The notes below the pieces were generated by a model. That model had not been told where the DNA came from. It ran no database searches and saw only the letters and a list, made by a program, of their open reading frames with translations. From assembly GCA_036351155.1 (NCBI GenBank), contig JAZBOO010000040.1:1-7390 (forward strand): DNA of 7,390 nt, in the 5' to 3' direction. Within the stretch, counting starts at the first letter, position 1, and the number at the start of each line of letters is the position of its first letter. The DNA is from Candidatus Krumholzibacteriia bacterium (lineage in GTDB: Bacteria; Krumholzibacteriota; Krumholzibacteriia; LZORAL124-64-63). A program made the position numbers and the translations under genes. This document shows, one piece after another, positions 1-7,390 of the stretch.

Positions 1-585
1 GAGGACATCCTCTACAAGCTGGGCGACCGGAACCTGGATCAGCTGAAGTACCAGCTGGCCCTGGGTCTCAAGCCCACCAGCGACCTGCGGATGGATCTGG
101 GCTTCCAGGCCATCGACCAGACCTACGAGCGCCTGGACGAGGCCGTGGAAACCACCTGGGCCACCCAGCGCGGTTACCTGATCGCCAACTGGACCGTGAT
201 GCCCCGGCTGACCGTGCTGGCCTCGGCCAGCCTGGGCCAGGACAAGTACGAACTGACCGACGGCCCGGTGTCCACAGGCACCATCGGCCCGTTGATGTAC
301 GACGGCAAGACCCTGCGCTACGCCCCCGGCGTGGTGTTCAGCGCCACGGACAAGCTGACGCTGGAAGCCATCTACGAAGGGATCGACTTCGAAGACAAGG
401 CGGACCGGGACGACGACAGCTACAAGCTGCAGTCGGACCACAGCCGCGTGTTGCTGCGGGCCGGCTACGATGTGGGCGAGAACGCCCGCGTGACCGCCGG
501 TTACCGTCGTCAGGAATTCGATGAGAACCGCTGGGATGACTACATCCTGGACATTTATTCACTGTCCGTGTCGGGCACGTTCTAG
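1..585 (+). CDS. Outer-membrane beta-barrel protein, C-terminal part (5'-truncated by window edge); possibly the porin of a porin-cytochrome system
   Basis: Frame 1 is open from base 1 (EDILYKLGDRNLDQLKYQLALGLKPTSDLRM...), so ATG 91 is internal. Alternating amphipathic strands with aromatic residues (GYLIANWT, LTLEAIYE, VLLRAGYD, RVTAGYRR). Ends in a beta-signal-like terminal Phe (IYSLSVSGTF, TAG 583-585). Exact family not identifiable by eye. Confidence 0.8.
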   Translation, partial: EDILYKLGDRNLDQLKYQLALGLKPTSDLRMDLGFQAIDQTYERLDEAVETTWATQRGYLIANWTVMPRLTVLASASLGQDKYELTDGPVSTGTIGPLMYDGKTLRYAPGVVFSATDKLTLEAIYEGIDFEDKADRDDDSYKLQSDHSRVLLRAGYDVGENARVTAGYRRQEFDENRWDDYILDIYSLSVSGTF

Positions 586-600
586 AAACCGAGGCCGAAC

Positions 601-1218
601 GTGAACACACTGCATCGACCCGAATCCCGCAAGGACCAGTTGCTGGCGCAGGCGACCCTGCTGTTCAGCAACCACGGGTTCGATGGTACCAGCATGCGCA
701 TGATCGCGCGTGCCAGTGGCATCACGGAAGCGGCCATTTACCGGCATTTCGACAACAAGTCCCATCTGTACGAAGAAGTGATCCGGGCCAAAGCCCGTTG
801 TCACGACATCGCGCAACTGCGTGAGGAAACTCCCGCCGGCGAGGACGTGGAAGGCCTCCTGACCAGGATCGCCCACCACATCCTCAACCTGGCGGCCCAG
901 GATCCTCAGCTGATGCGCCTGATGTTCCATAACAGCCTGGAGCGCGGGGCCTTCTCGGCCCTGCTCTTCATGGAAGTGCGCCTGCCGTATATCGAGTTTC
1001 TGGCTGAGGAACTGGCCAACCGCATGAAGGTTGGCGAGGTGCGCAGGGTTGATCCGCTGATCACAAGTCGCTGTTTCGTGGGCATGGTCATGGACTGTGC
1101 GCTGAACATCGGCGTGTGGACAAAGATGTTGGATTCCCAGTTCGAGGCCAACGACGTGGTCTGCAATAACGTGCCGATCTTCGCTCGTGGCCTCTTGACC
1201 GAACAGGCCGCCCACTAG
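601..1218 (+). CDS. TetR/AcrR family transcriptional regulator
   Basis: Typical N-terminal HTH (LFSNHGFDGTSMRMIARASGITEAAIYRHFDNKSHLY), 205 aa, GTG start with GAGG at 591-594, helical C-terminal domain containing 'GEVRRVDP'. Confidence 0.95.
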   Translation: MNTLHRPESRKDQLLAQATLLFSNHGFDGTSMRMIARASGITEAAIYRHFDNKSHLYEEVIRAKARCHDIAQLREETPAGEDVEGLLTRIAHHILNLAAQDPQLMRLMFHNSLERGAFSALLFMEVRLPYIEFLAEELANRMKVGEVRRVDPLITSRCFVGMVMDCALNIGVWTKMLDSQFEANDVVCNNVPIFARGLLTEQAAH

Positions 1219-1231
1219 GGCGCCTGCAACC

Positions 1232-1237
1232 GGGGAG
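1232..1237 (+). promoter_or_regulatory. Ribosome-binding site of the cytochrome gene
   Basis: GGGGAG 6 nt upstream of ATG 1244. Confidence 0.75.
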
Positions 1238-1243
1238 TAACCG

Positions 1244-2767
1244 ATGAAACGCATGATTCCTTTCAGCATCCTGGCGGTTCTGCTGGTGCTGACCTTCCTG
1301 TGCGGGTGTGAAAACGACACCGGCAACGATCTGGGCGAAGGCCCGGGCGGCGGTGGCACCACCACCGACATGTCCTGCCTGGGTTGTCACTCCAGCCAGA
1401 CCATGCTCGAGGAGGCGCTGGGCGAAGAAGGCGCCAAGGTGGAGGTGGCCATCAAGTCGGATGGCTGAGGCGGCGAAGTACCCCCGCTGGAAGCGTGGGA
1501 AAAAGTCATCATCACCGGCAACAATGGCACCCAGTTCCTCAACAGTGCGCATGGACCCGACTATGAAGGGGACCTGGTCCCCCACGTGCTGACCTGTCAG
1601 CATTGCCACGCCGGTCCCGCCGATTTCACCTTCGAAACCGCGGCCCAGGCCCACGACGGCATGATTGCCGACCCCAGCAGCTTCGGCACCTCGGGCTGTG
1701 TGCAGTGTCACGCACCCGACTTCGCGGAGAACGCCTGCGACGGCTGCCACTCCCAAGCAGTGGACGCCACCCGCAACAGCCTGCACACCAACCTGTGGGG
1801 CTACAAAGACGCCATCGAGGCGCGCTGTACCGCGAACTTCGACGAGCTGGGCGTGGAAGAGGGCTTCCAGGCCAACTGCGCCGGTTGCCACACCACTTGC
1901 GGACAGTGCCATATCAGCCGTCCCAAGAGCGTGGGCAGCGGTTTCATCCAGATCGCCGGTTCCCCATACTCGCACCGTTTCCGTCCCTCACCGGACATGA
2001 ACGAGCAGTGCATTGCCTGCCACGGCAGCCGCATCGGCAACGACTTCCTGGGTCAGTCCGAGGGTAACGTGGAAGACACGCACCGCCAGATGCAGTGCAA
2101 GGGCTGTCACACCATGGAAGAGATCCATGGCGACCCCACGCACACCGAGGAGAACCACTACAACGATCGCTACGAGGTGACCAACATGCCTCGTTGCGAG
2201 GAATGCCATGGAACCGAGGCCGAGTGGGACAATAGCTACCACAACGCCCATGTCGACGGCTTCGCCTCGAACCTGCAGTGCCAGGTCTGCCACTCGCAGC
2301 CCTACAAGAACTGCACGAATTGCCACAACCTGGGATCGGGCGAGAAGAGCCCCGACAAGTACGACATCGACCCCAGCATGGTGCAGCTGAAGATCGCCCC
2401 CAACGATGGTGGTCCTTCAGGCCTGAACAACCCCAACCGTGCCGAGTACGATTACGTGCTGGTGCGCCACACGCCCGTGGATCCCGGCACTTTCGACGAC
2501 TGGGGACTGTCTTTGCCCAACTACACGGCCGTGCCCACCTGGAAGTACACCTCGCCGCACAACATCGTGCGCTGGACCGCCCAGACCACGGTTGAAGCGG
2601 GGCAGAGCTGCGGCACTTCCTGCCATGGCACGCCCGACAGTCCGGAAGGGTTCTTCCTGCGGGAAAGCGACCTGTACGAGACCGATGGCGTGACCCGGCT
2701 GCCCGACTATGACGCCAATATCAATTTCGTGATGCCGGACCCCGACAAAGTGAAGTCCGACAAGTAG
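1244..2767 (+). CDS. Multiheme c-type cytochrome lipoprotein (11 CxxCH + 1 CxxxCH), probable selenoprotein with Sec75 encoded by TGA 1466-1468; 507 aa
   Basis: ORFs 1244-1468 and 1586-2767 share a frame, and the 39 codons between them are open (GGEVPPLEAWEKVIITGNNGTQFLNSAHGPDYEGDLVPH). The N-part has a lipoprotein signal (FLCG|C22) and CLGCH. The C-part has CQHCH, CVQCH, CDGCH, CAGCH, CGQCH, CIACH, CKGCH, CEECH, CQVCH, CTNCH and CGTSCH but no export signal. A SECIS-like hairpin follows the TGA. The cytochrome call is secure; Sec read-through is inferred. Confidence 0.85.
1482..1499 (+). promoter_or_regulatory. Candidate bacterial SECIS element
   Basis: CCC-CGCU-[GGA]-AGCG-(U bulge)-GGG: 7-bp stem starting 14 nt after the UGA, with an apical loop whose first G is 21 nt after the UGA. 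This fits the general bacterial SECIS geometry. Folded by eye only. Confidence 0.7.
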
Positions 2768-2781
2768 TTTCGTTCGCAAGA

Positions 2782-2847
2782 CTCCCCGCAGAACACTCTG
2801 CGGGGAGCATCAACAGGGGATCTTCCCCGAACCGGATCGCTGATCCG
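2782..2847 (+). repeat. Three tandem inverted repeats (hairpins) in the cytochrome-rhodanese intergenic region
   Basis: CTCCCCGCAGA-acac-TCTGCGGGGAG (2782-2807, perfect 11 bp); GGGGA-tct-TCCCC (2816-2828); CGGATC-gct-GATCCG (2833-2847). None is followed by a U-tract. Confidence 0.8.
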
Positions 2848-2851
2848 CGCC

Positions 2852-2857
2852 AAGGAG
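2852..2857 (+). promoter_or_regulatory. Ribosome-binding site of the rhodanese gene
   Basis: AAGGAG lies 7 nt upstream of ATG 2865 but only 1 nt upstream of ATG 2859, favouring 2865 as the start. Confidence 0.8.
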
Positions 2858-2864
2858 AATGACA

Positions 2865-4754
2865 ATGTTGAAACGCTGGTTCCTTCTTGTGATCATGATG
2901 CTCGCCCTGGTGGCCTTTACCGGTTGCTCCGACGACGACGACCCGGTTAACCCGCCCTCCGGCGACACCGCCTTCGAAGTCATGGTGGCCGCCGGCAAGG
3001 CGTACATCAACGACAGCGCCCAGTGCCCTGGCGTGATCAGCGCCCAGGCTGTTTATGATAACTTGGACGACTACACGGTCATCGACGTCCGGTCCATGGA
3101 CCATTACCTGGCCGGTCATATCCCCGGTGCCTACCAAACCACCTGGTCCACCTTCCTGGACGACCTGGCCAACAACATCCCCACCGGCAAGCCCTACGTC
3201 ATCACCTGTTACACGGGCCAGTCTGCCGGTCACTACAAGATTGCCGCCGAGATGATGGGCTACGATGATGTTTATAGCCTGCTCTGGGGCATGAGCTCCT
3301 GGAACGAGAACACCGCCGGCAACAAGTGGCAGGGCAACGCCATGGTGGATGACGCCCTGGGCGCCGCCAATGCCGAGCAGACCAACAACAACGGCGATCT
3401 GGTCGAGCATGACTTCCCCGTGCTGACCGAAGACGCCAGCACCGTGGTGGCCGACCGCGTCGAGGCCATGCTGGCCGCCGGTTTCCAGGCCACTTCCTAC
3501 GCGGCCATCCAGGACAACCTGGACGACTACTTCGTCATCAACTACTTCGGCGAAGCCGACTACCTGGGCACCGGCGGCTCGGGCGTCCCCGGCCACATCC
3601 CCGGCGCCTTCCAGTTCACCCCCTACGCCAGCCTGGGCGACGACCAGATGCTGAACAACCTGCCCAGCGACGGCACCACCATCGTGGTGTACTGCTGGAC
3701 CGGACAGCACAGCAGCCAGGTCACCGCGTACCTGAACATGCTGGGCTACAACGCCAAGAGCCTGGCCTACGGCAGCAACAATCTGTTCTACAGCAGCCTG
3801 ACCGCCCACAAGTGGAACGACGCCAACTGCATGAACTTCGACATGGAAATGGGCCCGATGATGACCGGCGACTTCGCCGCTCTGGTCGACGCGGGTGACG
3901 ACTACATCAACGACAACACCGACTGCCCCGGCACCATCAGTGCTCAGGCCCTGTATGACAACCTGGACGACTACACCGTGATCGATATCCGTGGAGCCAC
4001 CGATTACGCCGACGGCCACATCGTCGGCGCCATCAACAGCTCGCTGACCGACCTGATGACCGACCTGACCGACGGCACCATCCCCACCGGCAACCCCTAC
4101 GTGGTGGCTTGCTACACCGGCCAGGCCGCCGGCCACGCCAAGCTGGCCATGGAACTGATGGGTTACGAGAACGTCAAGACCCTGGCCTGGGGCATGAGCT
4201 CCTGGAGTCCTGATGTGACGGGGACGAACTGGGCAACCTCGACCATGGTCGCCGACGCCTTGGGCGCCGCCAATGCCGAGCAGACCAACAACAACCCGGA
4301 CCTGGTCTGGGGCGACTACCCCACCACCACCGGCACCATGGAAGACCGCGTGAACGCCATGCTGGCCGCCGGCTTCCAGGGCGTCAGCTACGCCTCGATC
4401 CAGGACAACCTGGATGACTACTTCGTGGTCAACTACTTCGGCGAAGCCGACTACCTGGGCGAGGGCATGTCCGGCGTGCCCGGCCACATCCCCGGCGCCT
4501 TCCAGTACACTCCCTATGCCAGCATGGGCATGGGCGAGATGCTGGCCTACCTGCCCACCGACCAGACCATCGTGGTGTACTGCTGGACCGGCCAGCACAG
4601 CAGCCAGGTCACCGCGTACCTGAACGTGCTGGGCTACACGGCCAAGAGCCTGGTCTACGGCAGCAACAACCTGTTCCACAGCAGCCTGACCGGCCACAAG
4701 TGGAGCAGCGCCAACGTCATGGACTTCCCGCTGCACAACTCCGTCACCAACTAA
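2865..4754 (+). CDS. Four-domain rhodanese (sulfurtransferase)-like lipoprotein
   Basis: Lipoprotein signal MLKRWFLLVIMMLALVAFTG|C21. Rhodanese signatures VIDVR...Y..GHIPGA and VIDIR...DY..GHIVGA, plus two further GHIPGA. Active-site loops CYTGQSA (Cys 3207), CWTGQHS (3693), CYTGQAA (4110), CWTGQHS (4581), with 'LWGMSSW' and 'LAWGMSSW' after loops 1 and 3. Stop is TAA. Confidence 0.92.
   Translation: MLKRWFLLVIMMLALVAFTGCSDDDDPVNPPSGDTAFEVMVAAGKAYINDSAQCPGVISAQAVYDNLDDYTVIDVRSMDHYLAGHIPGAYQTTWSTFLDDLANNIPTGKPYVITCYTGQSAGHYKIAAEMMGYDDVYSLLWGMSSWNENTAGNKWQGNAMVDDALGAANAEQTNNNGDLVEHDFPVLTEDASTVVADRVEAMLAAGFQATSYAAIQDNLDDYFVINYFGEADYLGTGGSGVPGHIPGAFQFTPYASLGDDQMLNNLPSDGTTIVVYCWTGQHSSQVTAYLNMLGYNAKSLAYGSNNLFYSSLTAHKWNDANCMNFDMEMGPMMTGDFAALVDAGDDYINDNTDCPGTISAQALYDNLDDYTVIDIRGATDYADGHIVGAINSSLTDLMTDLTDGTIPTGNPYVVACYTGQAAGHAKLAMELMGYENVKTLAWGMSSWSPDVTGTNWATSTMVADALGAANAEQTNNNPDLVWGDYPTTTGTMEDRVNAMLAAGFQGVSYASIQDNLDDYFVVNYFGEADYLGEGMSGVPGHIPGAFQYTPYASMGMGEMLAYLPTDQTIVVYCWTGQHSSQVTAYLNVLGYTAKSLVYGSNNLFHSSLTGHKWSSANVMDFPLHNSVTN
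3003..4727 (+). repeat. Intragenic tandem duplication of about 0.9 kb (unit 1 ~3003-3839, unit 2 ~3903-4727)
   Basis: Matching blocks at offsets of 888-903 nt, e.g. TACATCAACGAC at 3003/3903 and ATCCAGGACAACCTGGA at 3507/4398. Segments 3681-3815 and 4569-4703 differ at 8 of 135 nt by manual count. Confidence 0.95.
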
Positions 4755-4769
4755 TCCTGGCTGGGACGC

Positions 4770-4803
4770 AAAAGGGAGGGCCTTCGGGCCCTCCCTTTTT
4801 TTT
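4770..4803. terminator. Rho-independent terminator, probably bidirectional
   Basis: AAAA-GGGAGGGCC-TTCG-GGCCCTCCC-TTTTTTTT: 9-bp stem, cUUCGg tetraloop, U8 on + and U4 on -. It lies between the convergent stops at 4754 and 4820. Confidence 0.95.
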
Positions 4804-4819
4804 CTCCACCGCTGAAGCC

Positions 4820-5590
4820 TTACCGCACCGGCCGCGTGAACAGCCAGTTCCCCCCGTCAGCGGGCGGTTCCTCCGCAGCCTCCCAGCCCAGCGCATTGAA
4901 CCCCAGCAAATCTTGCGGCGTGGTCGCTCCCGACTCCAGCGCGTACTTGACCAGCGCGCCGCGGGCCATCTTCGAATGCACCGCGACGGTCTTCAAGCTG
5001 CCGTCCGGCTTCTCTTCCTTGAACACCAGCGAGATCAGGGGACCTTTCAGCTGCTTCAGATCCAGGGCCTTGATGTACTCCTGGGCTGCCACGCTGATCA
5101 CCGGCTCGCCCTTTTTCAGGTCGGCGTTGAGCGCCGCGGTGAGCGGTTCCTTCCAGAACTCGACCAGATTTCGGCACCCCCTGGGCTGCAGCTTGCTCCC
5201 CATTTCCAACCGGTAGAACTCGATCAGATCGAGCGGGCGCAACAGACCGTAAAGGCCCGACAGGACACGCACATCACGCTGAGCGTGCTTGAGCTGGGCG
5301 GGGGTCAATGTCTCCGCCTCGATGTACTTGTAAACCAGTCCGGTGAAGGCGAAGAGGGCCGGTGCCTGAGGTTGCCCAGCCTGCCCCCACAGCGCGGCAG
5401 CGGCCTTGGTCTCGGTGGCCAGCTTGGGACTCACCGACATCAGCTTGGCCAGCTTTGCTTCACTCAGGGGCCGCAACTGATCGGCCAGCTGCTGGGCCTG
5501 CTCCAGCTGCCGGGCCTTCGTGGCCCGAGGTGCACGCGGATAGGCGATCCCCGCATCCATGGTCTTGGTGGAGTTCAACAGGATCTTCAC
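4820..5590 (-). CDS. yaaA: YaaA / UPF0246 (DUF328) peroxide-stress DNA-binding protein
   Basis: 256 aa with family motifs 'LAKLMSVSPKLA', 'PALFAFTGLVY', 'VLSGLYGLLRPLDLIEFYRLEMG', 'SKMARG' and terminal 'FTR'. The GTG start overlaps the uup stop (GTGA), with GGAG just upstream. Confidence 0.93.
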   Translation of the reverse strand: MKILLNSTKTMDAGIAYPRAPRATKARQLEQAQQLADQLRPLSEAKLAKLMSVSPKLATETKAAAALWGQAGQPQAPALFAFTGLVYKYIEAETLTPAQLKHAQRDVRVLSGLYGLLRPLDLIEFYRLEMGSKLQPRGCRNLVEFWKEPLTAALNADLKKGEPVISVAAQEYIKALDLKQLKGPLISLVFKEEKPDGSLKTVAVHSKMARGALVKYALESGATTPQDLLGFNALGWEAAEEPPADGGNWLFTRPVR

Positions 5591-7368
5591 AGGGACTCCA
5601 GCTCCTCCCAGCGGGCATAACCCGCCTCCAGTTCCGCCTCGATTTCCTCGAGCCGCTTCTTCAGATCGACCACCCGGGCGGGAGCTTCCTGGTACAGCTT
5701 GGGGTCGGCCATCTGCCCGTGGATCTGCTCCTGCTCGGCCTCCCAGACTTCGATTTGCCCGGGCAGCGCCTCCAGCTCCTTCTTTTCCTTGTAGCTCAGG
5801 CGGCGCGGCTGGTCGACCCTGGGCTTGGCTTTGCCCTCTTTTTTCTTGGGCTTCTCGCCGGCTACGGTCTGCCGCGAAACCCGCGCCCAGTCCGAATAGC
5901 CGCCCACCGTCTCGGTCACCCGGCCGTCCCCCTCCAGGGCCAGGGTGCTGGTGGTCACGTTGTCCAGGAACTCGCGATCGTGGCTGACCAGCAGCATGGT
6001 CCCCTCGAAGTTGACCAGCAGCTCCTCCAGCAGTTCCAGGGTTTCCAGGTCCAGGTCGTTGGTGGGTTCGTCCAGCACCAGCAGGTTGGCCGGCTGGGTG
6101 AACAGGCGGGCCAGCAGCAGGCGGTTCCGCTCGCCTCCCGACAGATGGGTGATGGGCGACCGCGCGCGATCGGGCGAGAACAGGAAGTTCTGCAGATAGG
6201 TGATGATGTGCATGGGCTGGCCGTTGAAGTTGATGGTGGGGTTGCCCTCACTCACGTTCTCCAGCACCGTCTTGGTTTCGTCCAGCTGGGCGCGCTGCTG
6301 ATCGAAGTAGGCCACCTGCAGCTTGGTCCCGGTCTGGATAGTGCCCTCGGTGGGCGCCAGCTCTCCCAGCAGCAACCGCAGCAGGGTGGTCTTGCCCGAG
6401 CCGTTGGGGCCCAGAATACCCACCTTGTCCCCGCGCATGATCATGGTGTTCAGGCCCTGGACCATCACCTTGTCCGGCCAGGAGAATGCCAGGTCCCGGG
6501 TGCGGATCACCAGCCGGCCGCTCTGGTCGCTGTCCTGCAGCTGAATACGCGCATCACCGGTCTGGGTCCGGCGCGACTGCCTCTGCTCGCGCATCTCCAT
6601 CAAGGAGCGCACCCGGCCCTCGTTGCGGGTCCGGCGGTCGCGCACCCCCTGGCGGATCCACACCTCTTCCTCGGCCAGCTTGCGGTCGAAGGCCGCCCAC
6701 TGATTCTTCTCGTCGCGCAGGTGCTCGTCGCGGCGCACCAGGAAGGTGTCGTAGTTGCAGGTCCAGTCGCGCAAACGGCCGCGGTCTAGCTCGATGATCC
6801 GCTGGGCCACCGCCCGCAGAAATGCCCGGTCATGGGTCACGAAGAACAGGGCCCCACTGAAGCGCGCCAGCTGATCTTCCAGCCAGGCGATGGCGTCGAT
6901 GTCCAGGTGGTTGGTGGGTTCGTCCAGCAGCAGCAGATCCGGCTCGATGACCATGGCCCGCGCCAGCAACACCCGGCGCTTGTTGCCCGCCGACAGGGTG
7001 GAAAACTCGGCACCTCCGTCCAGCCCGGCGCGGGTCAGCACCTGGGCCACCTGGTTGGCCAGCTCCCACGGTCCGGCATCTTCCAGATGGGCAGCCAGCC
7101 CCTGGGCCACCACCTCTTCCACCTTGCCCGTCAGATCGCGAGGCACTTCCTGAGGCAGATACCCCACCCGCAGGCCGCTTTGACGCAAGATCTCGCCGCC
7201 ATCCGGCTTGAGCTCACCGCTCATGATGCGCAACAGGGTGGTCTTGCCTTCACCGTTGCGGCCGAGCAGACTGGCCCGTTCGCCCTTCTCCACCCGCAGG
7301 TTGACATCCTGCAGGATGGCCGGGCCGCCGAGGGCCAAGGTGAGGTTTTTGAGTTCGAGTATTGCCAT
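5587..7368 (-). CDS. uup: ABC-F family ATPase, Uup-like
   Basis: Two ABC domains (GRNGEGKT / LSAG / LLLLDEPTNHLD / VTHDR and GPNGSGKT / LSGGE / LLVLDEPTNDLD / VSHDR), linker 'EEVWIRQGVRDRRTRNEGRVR', C-terminal coiled coil 'LSYKEKKELEALPGQIE...RWEELE'. No transmembrane segments. Confidence 0.93.
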   Translation of the reverse strand: MAILELKNLTLALGGPAILQDVNLRVEKGERASLLGRNGEGKTTLLRIMSGELKPDGGEILRQSGLRVGYLPQEVPRDLTGKVEEVVAQGLAAHLEDAGPWELANQVAQVLTRAGLDGGAEFSTLSAGNKRRVLLARAMVIEPDLLLLDEPTNHLDIDAIAWLEDQLARFSGALFFVTHDRAFLRAVAQRIIELDRGRLRDWTCNYDTFLVRRDEHLRDEKNQWAAFDRKLAEEEVWIRQGVRDRRTRNEGRVRSLMEMREQRQSRRTQTGDARIQLQDSDQSGRLVIRTRDLAFSWPDKVMVQGLNTMIMRGDKVGILGPNGSGKTTLLRLLLGELAPTEGTIQTGTKLQVAYFDQQRAQLDETKTVLENVSEGNPTINFNGQPMHIITYLQNFLFSPDRARSPITHLSGGERNRLLLARLFTQPANLLVLDEPTNDLDLETLELLEELLVNFEGTMLLVSHDREFLDNVTTSTLALEGDGRVTETVGGYSDWARVSRQTVAGEKPKKKEGKAKPRVDQPRRLSYKEKKELEALPGQIEVWEAEQEQIHGQMADPKLYQEAPARVVDLKKRLEEIEAELEAGYARWEELESL

Positions 7369-7390
7369 GGTCCGCCAAAGATGACCGAAC

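Follow-up and report, generated by a model that had tools for sequence, protein, structure and literature searches.

A predicted selenocysteine-containing multihaem cytochrome encoded beside a rhodanese lipoprotein in an MtrAB-like operon of a Candidatus Krumholzibacteriia genome

The operon and its in-frame TGA codon

The DNA analysed here is the whole of contig C40 (GenBank JAZBOO010000040.1, positions 1 to 7,390), referred to below as the window, a 7.4-kb stretch of a metagenome-assembled Candidatus Krumholzibacteriia genome of 405 contigs and 4.19 Mb with a G+C content of 62%. Its forward strand carries part of an operon in which a lipoprotein multihaem cytochrome c, encoded with one in-frame TGA, is followed by a rhodanese lipoprotein. 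In order, the genes encode the C-terminal 194 amino acids of an outer-membrane barrel, open at the 5′ end (1-585), a TetR-family regulator of 205 amino acids (601-1218), the cytochrome, of 507 amino acids (1244-2767), and a four-domain rhodanese of 631 amino acids (2859-4754). An intrinsic terminator at 4770-4799, comprising a 13-pair stem with eight G-C pairs and then a T run, closes the series. The genes are separated by 15, 25 and 91 nt; the third gap becomes 97 nt if the rhodanese begins at 2865, where an ATG agrees with the N-terminal consensus M-x-K-R-W of its homologues. A preliminary description, made from the sequence of the window, had proposed four co-oriented genes with gaps of 15, 25 and about 97 nt that end at one strong terminator, and the present gene calls and terminator agree with it. 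As four terminator-like sites were counted against a shuffle mean of 4.6, the terminator hairpin was weighed by its strength and position rather than by tally. A scan of the window with Rfam gave only a sub-threshold sbrA match at 4721-4803 (33.3 bits against a gathering score of 45), which corresponds to this same hairpin.

The first 117 nt of the window are identical to the final 117 nt of contig C175, which bears the remainder of the barrel gene (its first 477 amino acids) and an MtrA-like gene, so the operon can be completed. Its full order is mtrA-like, barrel (approximately 632 amino acids), tetR, selenocysteine cytochrome and rhodanese, with one terminator. The 5′ part, which the preliminary description had placed beyond the window, is thereby located, and the further cytochromes it had led us to look for upstream are represented by an MtrA homologue of 304 amino acids with 10 CXXCH motifs (phmmer to 6r2q_A, E 1.3e-37). 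On C175 the mtrA-like gene and the barrel gene are 12 nt apart, and 5′ of the former lie a 265-nt AT-rich gap and then the terminator of an unrelated gene. A 6.7-kb contig from a wastewater metagenome matches window positions 1-2302 and reaches 4.4 kb further upstream, which shows that a near relative with an intact 5′ part exists in public reads. Contigs from two RNA libraries (X16 and X18), derived from relatives at least 90% alike, cover 1412-1634, which spans the UGA, 1159-1399, which spans the TetR/cytochrome junction, and 2727-2938, which spans the cytochrome/rhodanese junction. These were not counted as proof of expression or co-transcription, because such libraries can contain DNA and a contig that touches two genes is not equivalent to a single transcript.

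On the strength of its conservation, of the hairpin after it and of the decoding machinery in the genome, we take the in-frame TGA at 1466-1468 to be a selenocysteine (Sec) codon, as the preliminary description had supposed. With the TGA read in this way, Sec75 stands in the sequence S-D-G-U-G-G-E-V-P-P-L-E-A-W, and the surrounding motif D-G-U-G-G-x-V-P-x-L-E-A-W (E in the window at the first x) is conserved in the family. A homologue is present in 28 of 61 related genomes, and exactly one in-frame TGA is found in 25 of the 26 matches that cover the site. Among the best 80 loci, which come from many phyla, a single in-frame TGA occurs in 75 and none in four, with one locus cut at its 5′ end; these loci partly overlap the related-genome set, and the relatives counted are not mutually independent. 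A scan of one genome per species returned at least 551 stretches encoding a relative of the cytochrome. The closest are labelled Candidatus Krumholzibacteriia, and further labels include Eisenbacteria, Latescibacterota, Gemmatimonadota, KSB1, Calditrichia, Phycisphaerae and Ignavibacteria, among others.

The genome has the machinery to decode such a codon, with one tRNA-SeC and with selA (452.7 bits), selB (329.7 bits) and selD (362.3 bits) all scoring above their curated cut-offs. The selD gene (C334:1256-2173) itself has one in-frame TGA and is probably the selenoprotein form of selenophosphate synthetase. TGA is also the most frequent ordinary stop among the loci read, which indicates that the genome is not recoded. 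The 74 amino acids before the TGA of the cytochrome gene include its first haem motif and hold the only signal peptide, so the 432 amino acids that follow could not be exported without read-through.

A hairpin resembling a selenocysteine insertion sequence lies at 1481-1499 (CCCCCGC, loop UGGAA, GCGUGGG) and begins 12 nt past the UGA. Among 18 sequences of the window clade, 92.1% of alignment cells pair, a C-G to A-U double change is seen in four, and RNAalifold adds a lower stem running from the UGA to approximately position 1514. The 23 sequences taken from more distant phyla have their hairpin 2-3 nt closer in; 94.9% of their cells pair, and two-sided changes are seen in five of six pairs (18 cells). 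At most one in 500 shuffles reached the observed values, and controls in which the position was slid paired in 38-62% of cells. Across the family the hairpin lies 11-13 nt after the UGA. Some of the compensatory changes come at the cost of different amino acids (residue 80 with residue 84), an argument for selection at the RNA level.

Sec is missing from nine of 68 aligned homologue rows, where the site holds W in two, Q in two (probably a duplicate listing of one protein), P in two, and R, G or a gap in the rest. The homologues without Sec are P0009, P0032 (the same as L082), P0046, P0051, P0059, L078, L116 and L120, the first five of which have an insertion with two further CXXCH motifs. In genome G006 the Trp form is encoded by a TGG codon within an altered local context; loss of the Sec trait was considered as the cause of this variant and ruled out, as G006 keeps selA (449.5 bits).

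The cytochrome family and its rhodanese partner

Both products that follow TetR appear to be exported lipoproteins. The cytochrome has a signal peptide with the lipobox FLCGC and a mature start C-E-N-D-T, and the rhodanese has a signal peptide with the lipobox AFTGC and a mature start C-S-D-D-D-D (window 2925-2942, residues 23-28), all of which were read by eye from the sequence. Together with an MtrB-like barrel, this bears out the earlier suggestion that three of the products are extracytoplasmic.

The cytochrome contains 11 CXXCH motifs and one CX3CH motif, and all but one of these 12 are kept in 66-68 of the 68 rows aligned. A further 10 His residues are conserved in the family. If, and only if, the CX3CH site binds haem, the count of 11 motifs against 10 His leaves one haem with no conserved His partner. 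We infer from the alignment that the sixth ligand of this unpaired haem could be Sec75, the nearly invariant K383, or none. K383 is the sole nearly invariant Lys in the protein, and a Lys-ligated active-site haem is a feature of octahaem tetrathionate reductase (OTR). The lipobox Cys22 is the only conserved Cys outside the haem motifs.

We looked for kin of the cytochrome by profile, sequence and fold. No NCBIfam family matched it at E ≤0.01, NF040886 (ExtKL) included. A 2026 review table gives as its Sec-related cytochrome entries ExtKL (NF040886), the GSU2204 family (NF041027) and OTR (TIGR04315) (PMC13188914). Since no NCBIfam match was obtained, the window cytochrome belongs to none of these three. 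Across the genome, the best NF040886 score is 18.8 bits on contig C368, outside the window. TIGR04315, whose cut-off is 375 bits, reached 19.7 bits on the window cytochrome (C40:2075-2293). A true OTR of this genome is encoded at C206:4462-5763 (TIGR04315, 599 bits), and a second OTR-like gene that scores under the cut-off (318 bits) lies at C338:3966-5243; both genes are free of in-frame stops. A profile alignment of the cytochrome family to the genome's own OTR with hhalign gave a probability of 94.5% (E 7.7e-8) over 96 columns that include four consecutive haem motifs. Searches of PDB sequences with phmmer and with a 68-sequence profile returned only local haem-motif matches, the best of them to UndA (E 1.6e-4) and flavocytochrome c3, the presence of MccSep chains in that set being unconfirmed.

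An AlphaFold (AF2) model built from the 68-row alignment had a predicted local distance difference test score (pLDDT) of 82.8 and a predicted template modelling score (pTM) of 0.80. Foldseek found nothing in the PDB below E 1 for this model. The exhaustive aligner VIA placed OTR (1sp3_A) first, with a Z score of 7.4 and a root-mean-square deviation of 4.2 Å over 267 residues, the next match having a Z score of 3.4. On these profile and model comparisons, we read the cytochrome as a distant offshoot of the OTR-type octahaem cytochromes with an added N-terminal module that would hold haem 1 and the Sec loop. The family is poorly served by current annotation. Gene callers split the gene, leaving most homologues in databases as 3′ fragments that span 71-83% of the query, and 12 of the 120 homologues listed carry the Joint Genome Institute (JGI) name "thiosulfate/3-mercaptopyruvate sulfurtransferase" although they are cytochromes, a misnaming that may spread.

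The rhodanese (PF00581 four times, 163.2 bits) is an internally duplicated two-domain unit, its halves matching each other in tblastn; in other phyla a two-domain form is found. Its catalytic loops read CYTGQ and CWTGQH, and every one of 29 four-domain homologues has the loop cysteines C117, C279, C418 and C575. Among PDB sequences there was no match to Sud at E ≤0.001, and the best matches were the single-domain proteins Alr3790, GlpE and those of PspE type (E approximately 1e-5).

The preliminary description had made its case depend on whether homologues of these genes co-occur in other genomes, and we see that they do. In 20 loci from relatives, TetR is adjacent to the cytochrome in every one and the rhodanese comes next in 19, the contig ending at that point in the twentieth; the barrel C-terminal fragment was matched in 13 of the 20. 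Among the best 80 loci, 72 have a rhodanese match, and four of the eight without one stop right after the cytochrome. Clustering of open reading frames (ORFs) in the same 80 loci recovered the rhodanese in 67, TetR in 36, an MtrA-like cytochrome in 35 and the barrel in 31. From these counts (67 as against 35 and 31), the cross-phylum core is the cytochrome and the rhodanese, with the conduit being lineage-specific. The pair also occurs as a natural fusion: P0122, a 946-residue protein from a JGI metagenome and the only match of a search for longer database proteins, comprises a lipobox, a PKD domain, two rhodanese domains and then a cytochrome module. That module is 33% identical to window residues 162-462 (E 4e-45), and the N-terminal Sec module is left unmatched. 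Where downstream DNA was available, 70 of 72 Sec-encoding loci have the rhodanese and two of three loci without Sec do not, a hint from small numbers that Sec and rhodanese may be lost together. In other lineages the neighbours of the pair include modules of the quinol side, which are cytochrome c/b561 fusions or Fer4 proteins with cytochrome b, as well as an ArsR-rhodanese regulator and sigma-54 activators.

Conduit, regulator and cell-surface location

On its own, the barrel fragment at 1-585 reaches only a sub-threshold match to OMP_b-brl (17.4 bits). Of 29 homologous barrels, six reach PF11854 (MtrB_PioB) and nine reach OMP_b-brl. The fold was assessed with a same-genus homologue that is 47% identical to the window fragment, for which AlphaFold gave a 26-strand model (pLDDT 83.9). 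Its best PDB match was MtrB (6r2q_B, E 2.9e-16, TM-scores 0.68/0.66), with TonB-dependent receptors next at TM-scores of at most 0.46. A sequence profile of the barrel found no MtrB among PDB sequences, where the fold search did. By this model the operon barrel is MtrB-like, and the outcome that would have told against the preliminary description, a barrel belonging to an unrelated nutrient transporter, was not seen. The MtrA-like gene precedes the barrel in all eight relatives' loci in which that ORF was scanned. As to a decahaem of the MtrC/OmcA type in the window, PF22113 (MtrC/MtrF II-IV) gave 23.8 bits against a cut-off of 30, and the cytochrome model has no structural match to MtrC.

A second candidate conduit is found in the same genome on contig C5 (L140:5133-10605). 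There, a 698-residue multihaem/cytochrome b561 fusion that is CbcL-like diverges from a 329-residue MtrA-like cytochrome, which is accompanied by a 616-residue protein with no Pfam match, possibly a barrel, and an ORF of 126 residues.

The TetR-family regulator is recognised by PF00440 (57.2 bits, residues 14-60) and reached no NCBIfam equivalog. It sits between the barrel and the cytochrome in the loci of all 20 relatives. Within 130 nt of the presumed promoter region, in the 265-nt stretch ahead of the mtrA-like gene, the palindrome TGTTAACA is found twice (L139:11453-11461 and 11576-11584), and the whole 4.19-Mb genome holds only five copies. GTTAAC was found upstream in just six of 28 relatives, so TGTTAACA is put forward only as a candidate TetR operator. 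In two loci labelled Deltaproteobacteria/Myxococcales (L085:2318-3145 and L088:6053-6826), an ArsR-type helix-turn-helix fused to a rhodanese lies directly upstream of the Sec cytochrome and may be a persulfide-sensing regulator in the place of TetR.

The N-terminus of the rhodanese also bears on where the pair may reside. The 29 four-domain homologues keep its C-S-D-D-D-D start, in which conservation is 90% or more at S24 and D26, and the surface-export signal of Bacteroides lipoproteins is CS(D/E)3 (PMC6222051). As the rhodanese fits this signal and the cytochrome begins C-E-N-D, a surface location is plausible, and by analogy the cytochrome and the rhodanese may both lie on the cell surface of this organism of the Fibrobacteres-Chlorobi-Bacteroidetes (FCB) group.

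Beyond the terminator, yaaA (4820-5590, PF03883, 228.8 bits) lies on the reverse strand, convergent with the operon, and overlaps by 4 nt with the ABC-F gene uup (5587-7368), also on the reverse strand. This arrangement at the 3′ side of the operon is shared only with the closest relative (L034). On C175, a few kilobases upstream of the operon (L139:3447-9712), are an ApbE gene and an Rnf-type cluster with RnfA/E-, RnfB- and RnfC-like products, followed by genes for a 4HBT thioesterase and a secreted chalcone-isomerase-like protein. They are set off from the operon by a terminator.

Proposed function, alternatives and known systems

The closest functional precedent for a selenium-containing cytochrome of this kind is MccSep (ExtKL) of Geobacter sulfurreducens, a Sec-containing multihaem polysulfide reductase (PMC13510729). 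By analogy with it, we propose that the operon encodes a molybdenum-free, Sec-dependent respiratory reductase of polysulfide, elemental sulfur (S0) or related chalcogen species, supplied with electrons by the conduit, and we would put the probability of this at roughly 0.55. The path and chemistry suggested here are drawn from the protein families and from the MccSep precedent. Electrons would leave the quinol pool for the MtrA-like protein, perhaps by way of a CbcL-like cytochrome c/b fusion whose gene lies at another place in the genome. Within the barrel they would traverse the outer membrane, to arrive at the haem chain of the Sec cytochrome, which would act as the terminal reductase. Near a catalytic haem, Sec75 would attack a chalcogen-chalcogen bond, as the Sec of MccSep does, the substrate being polysulfide or S0-derived sulfane sulfur and perhaps tetrathionate or selenite. 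The cysteines of the rhodanese would bind sulfane sulfur as persulfides and hand it over to the cytochrome, and TetR would repress the operon until some signal comes. A broader version of this proposal is tentative, and we think it more doubtful than probable. In this version, a widespread molybdenum-free respiration of S0 or polysulfide (or selenium) would rely on an OTR-derived cytochrome with a partnerless Sec nucleophile, perhaps also the sixth ligand of a haem, that is fed by a rhodanese lipoprotein; in Krumholzibacteria this would be placed outside MtrAB, where insoluble sulfur would be reduced at the surface.

Several observations weigh against these proposals. The window's own sequence after the UGA folds no better than shuffles (z 0.46), and Cys is found at the Sec position in none of the 68 aligned rows, so the Cys homologues by which selenoproteins are usually recognised are missing here. 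The haem and His counts would signal a special haem only if the CX3CH motif binds haem, and the 68-row alignment holds no further conserved Cys to serve as a haem ligand of the MccSep kind. The Z score of 7.4 to OTR falls within the common range of the tool, in which values below 8 can reflect a common arrangement; as the match spans model residues 100-507, it excludes the Sec loop, and OTR itself also reduces nitrogen oxyanions (PMC13510729). With regard to location, the surface-export signal is established for Bacteroidota and not for Krumholzibacteriota, and a surface position cannot be general because many loci in other phyla are without MtrAB.

The machinery might also run in the reverse direction, with the Sec cytochrome and the rhodanese oxidising sulfide, S0, thiosulfate or metal sulfides and the conduit carrying electrons inward. 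Inward electron transfer has been proposed for conduits of the MtoAB/PioAB type, PF11854 is a single family named for both MtrB and PioB, and the sequence holds nothing that fixes the direction of electron flow. Thiosulfate is oxidised by the His/Cys-haem enzymes TsdA and SoxAX (PMC13510729). We consider this direction unlikely, as the characterised Sec multihaem enzyme, MccSep, is a reductase, and so is OTR. The inner-membrane neighbours in other lineages are CbcL-like c/b fusions, and such fusions are described as acting in metal reducers as quinol oxidases. The loci read showed no sox, dsr or sqr genes, these genes not having been searched for genome-wide.

If the true substrate were an oxyanion of selenium or tellurium, the rhodanese would carry selenium and the Sec cytochrome would reduce selenite at the envelope, as a reductase or a detoxification system. 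MccSep does reduce selenite as well, at lower efficiency (PMC13510729), and loss of the porin gene extI impairs reduction of both selenite and tellurite (PMC6148476, citing PMC5877670). The organism uses selenium, as tRNA-SeC, selA, selB and selD indicate. Set against this are the preference of MccSep for polysulfide and the four invariant sulfane-carrier cysteines of the window system. In addition, the module spans at least 551 species genomes from ordinary sediments, mats and wastewater (by the labels of four runs, those with small word shares left aside), where selenite is scarce, and a role centred on selenium therefore seems to us quite unlikely.

It is improbable that the cytochrome is a general terminal cytochrome for extracellular electron transfer to Fe(III), Mn(IV) or humics, substituting for MtrC, with Sec and the rhodanese in protective or accessory roles. 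The gene does lie where an outer cytochrome is expected beside MtrAB, and the weak match to MtrC/MtrF II-IV, sub-threshold at 23.8 bits against 30, points the same way. The Sec-less relatives with two extra CXXCH motifs, and the two of three such loci that lack the rhodanese, also resemble plain electron-transfer cytochromes. Such a role gives no reason for a costly Sec and its hairpin to be kept in 75 of 80 loci, and leaves unexplained the adjacency of rhodanese and cytochrome where MtrAB is absent.

We find still less credible a reductase that, like OTR, acts on nitrogen oxyanions (nitrite, hydroxylamine) or on tetrathionate only, the rhodanese being unrelated. The fold and profile links to OTR (Z 7.4; hhalign 94.5%) favour it, as does the activity of OTR on both nitrogen and sulfur substrates (PMC13510729). 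The pairing with the rhodanese and the P0122 fusion speak against it, the genome already has a full-score OTR (599 bits, on C206), and the N-terminal Sec module is an addition that OTR lacks. Finally, the view that the TGA is a true stop in a split or broken gene from which no selenoprotein is made can draw on the behaviour of gene callers, on the 3′ fragments among database homologues, on the want of a Cys form and on the weak single-sequence fold, but is barely tenable given that the frame, the flanking residues and the TGA are conserved across phyla, that the hairpin covaries even through amino-acid changes, that a signal peptide is lacking from the 3′ part, and that the Sec machinery is complete.

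How sulfur respiration proceeds without molybdenum-containing polysulfide reductases was an open question until the 2026 description of MccSep. If our proposal of a Sec-dependent chalcogen reductase is correct, the window family would offer another selenium-haem solution, unrelated to the first and distributed over uncultured phyla of the FCB group and others in sediments, mats and wastewater. The attachment to MtrAB suggests that such conduits may serve chalcogen substrates besides metals. Because callers stop at the UGA, no NCBIfam model exists and homologues are misnamed as sulfurtransferases, genome-based pictures of sulfur cycling and selenium use under-count the family. A search of the literature in full text, with supplements outside its scope, found MccSep and ExtHIJKL and no description of the window cytochrome family as a selenoprotein. 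This analysis adds the join between contigs, the fold of the barrel, the broader covariation of the hairpin, the hint of co-loss of Sec and rhodanese, and the observation on the surface signal.

Among known systems, MtrCAB of Shewanella (PDB 6r2q) shares with the window operon a decahaem MtrA homologue, a 26-strand MtrB-like barrel and an outer lipoprotein cytochrome in the same operon. It differs in that the Sec cytochrome and rhodanese stand where a decahaem of MtrC/OmcA type would be, that tetR lies inside the window operon, and that the window barrel is too diverged for a profile to detect the MtrB of the PDB. A second comparison is with Sud and Psr of Wolinella succinogenes, in which a rhodanese-type carrier outside the cytoplasm delivers sulfane sulfur to a respiratory reductase; the window pair follows the same logic of carrier and reductase, but Psr is a molybdoenzyme. 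OTR of Shewanella oneidensis (1sp3, TIGR04315) is the best structural match and acts on a sulfur compound, and Sec-containing TIGR04315 members are listed in the review table (PMC13188914). The window cytochrome differs from OTR in having three or four more haems, an N-terminal Sec module, a lipid anchor and an obligatory rhodanese neighbour.

DealDRAFT_1917 of Dethiobacter alkaliphilus is an OTR/SirA-like multihaem cytochrome encoded with rhodanese genes, and has been proposed as a determinant of sulfur reduction in an organism that reduces sulfur and thiosulfate without molybdopterin and Dsr enzymes (PMC10376724). It was formerly misnamed as a thiosulfate sulfurtransferase (PMC10376724), an error that the JGI name repeats for 12 of the 120 listed homologues of the window cytochrome, and the word selenocysteine is absent from that paper. 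Its likeness to the window cytochrome is by description only, and membership of the same family is a lead.

MccSep/ExtKL (GSU2937-2936) is the best functional analogue. Like the window cytochrome it is a multihaem c-type protein with one UGA-encoded Sec in a D-G-U loop and a hairpin after it, and is encoded with a rhodanese lipoprotein, ExtH, and an outer-membrane barrel (PMC13510729; PMC6148476). MccSep is a soluble periplasmic pentahaem protein whose C-terminal Ig-like domain bears the Sec in a D-G-U-P loop, beside a Cys-ligated haem (PMC13510729), whereas the window cytochrome has 11-12 haem motifs, is lipid-anchored and carries its Sec near the N-terminus, at residue 75 of 507. NF040886 revealed no sequence relation between the two. 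The ExtI porin is reported to have 21 transmembrane domains (PMC6148476), in contrast to the MtrB-like window porin with its 26 strands and MtrA inside, and some ext clusters have TetR-family regulators nearby (PMC6148476). The preliminary description's phrase for this relationship, analogous to ExtHIJKL and architecturally different, thus suits both the cytochrome and the porin. Porin-cytochrome conduits that go with a Sec-containing multihaem reductase and a rhodanese carrier are already known, and the window system appears to be a variant of this kind.

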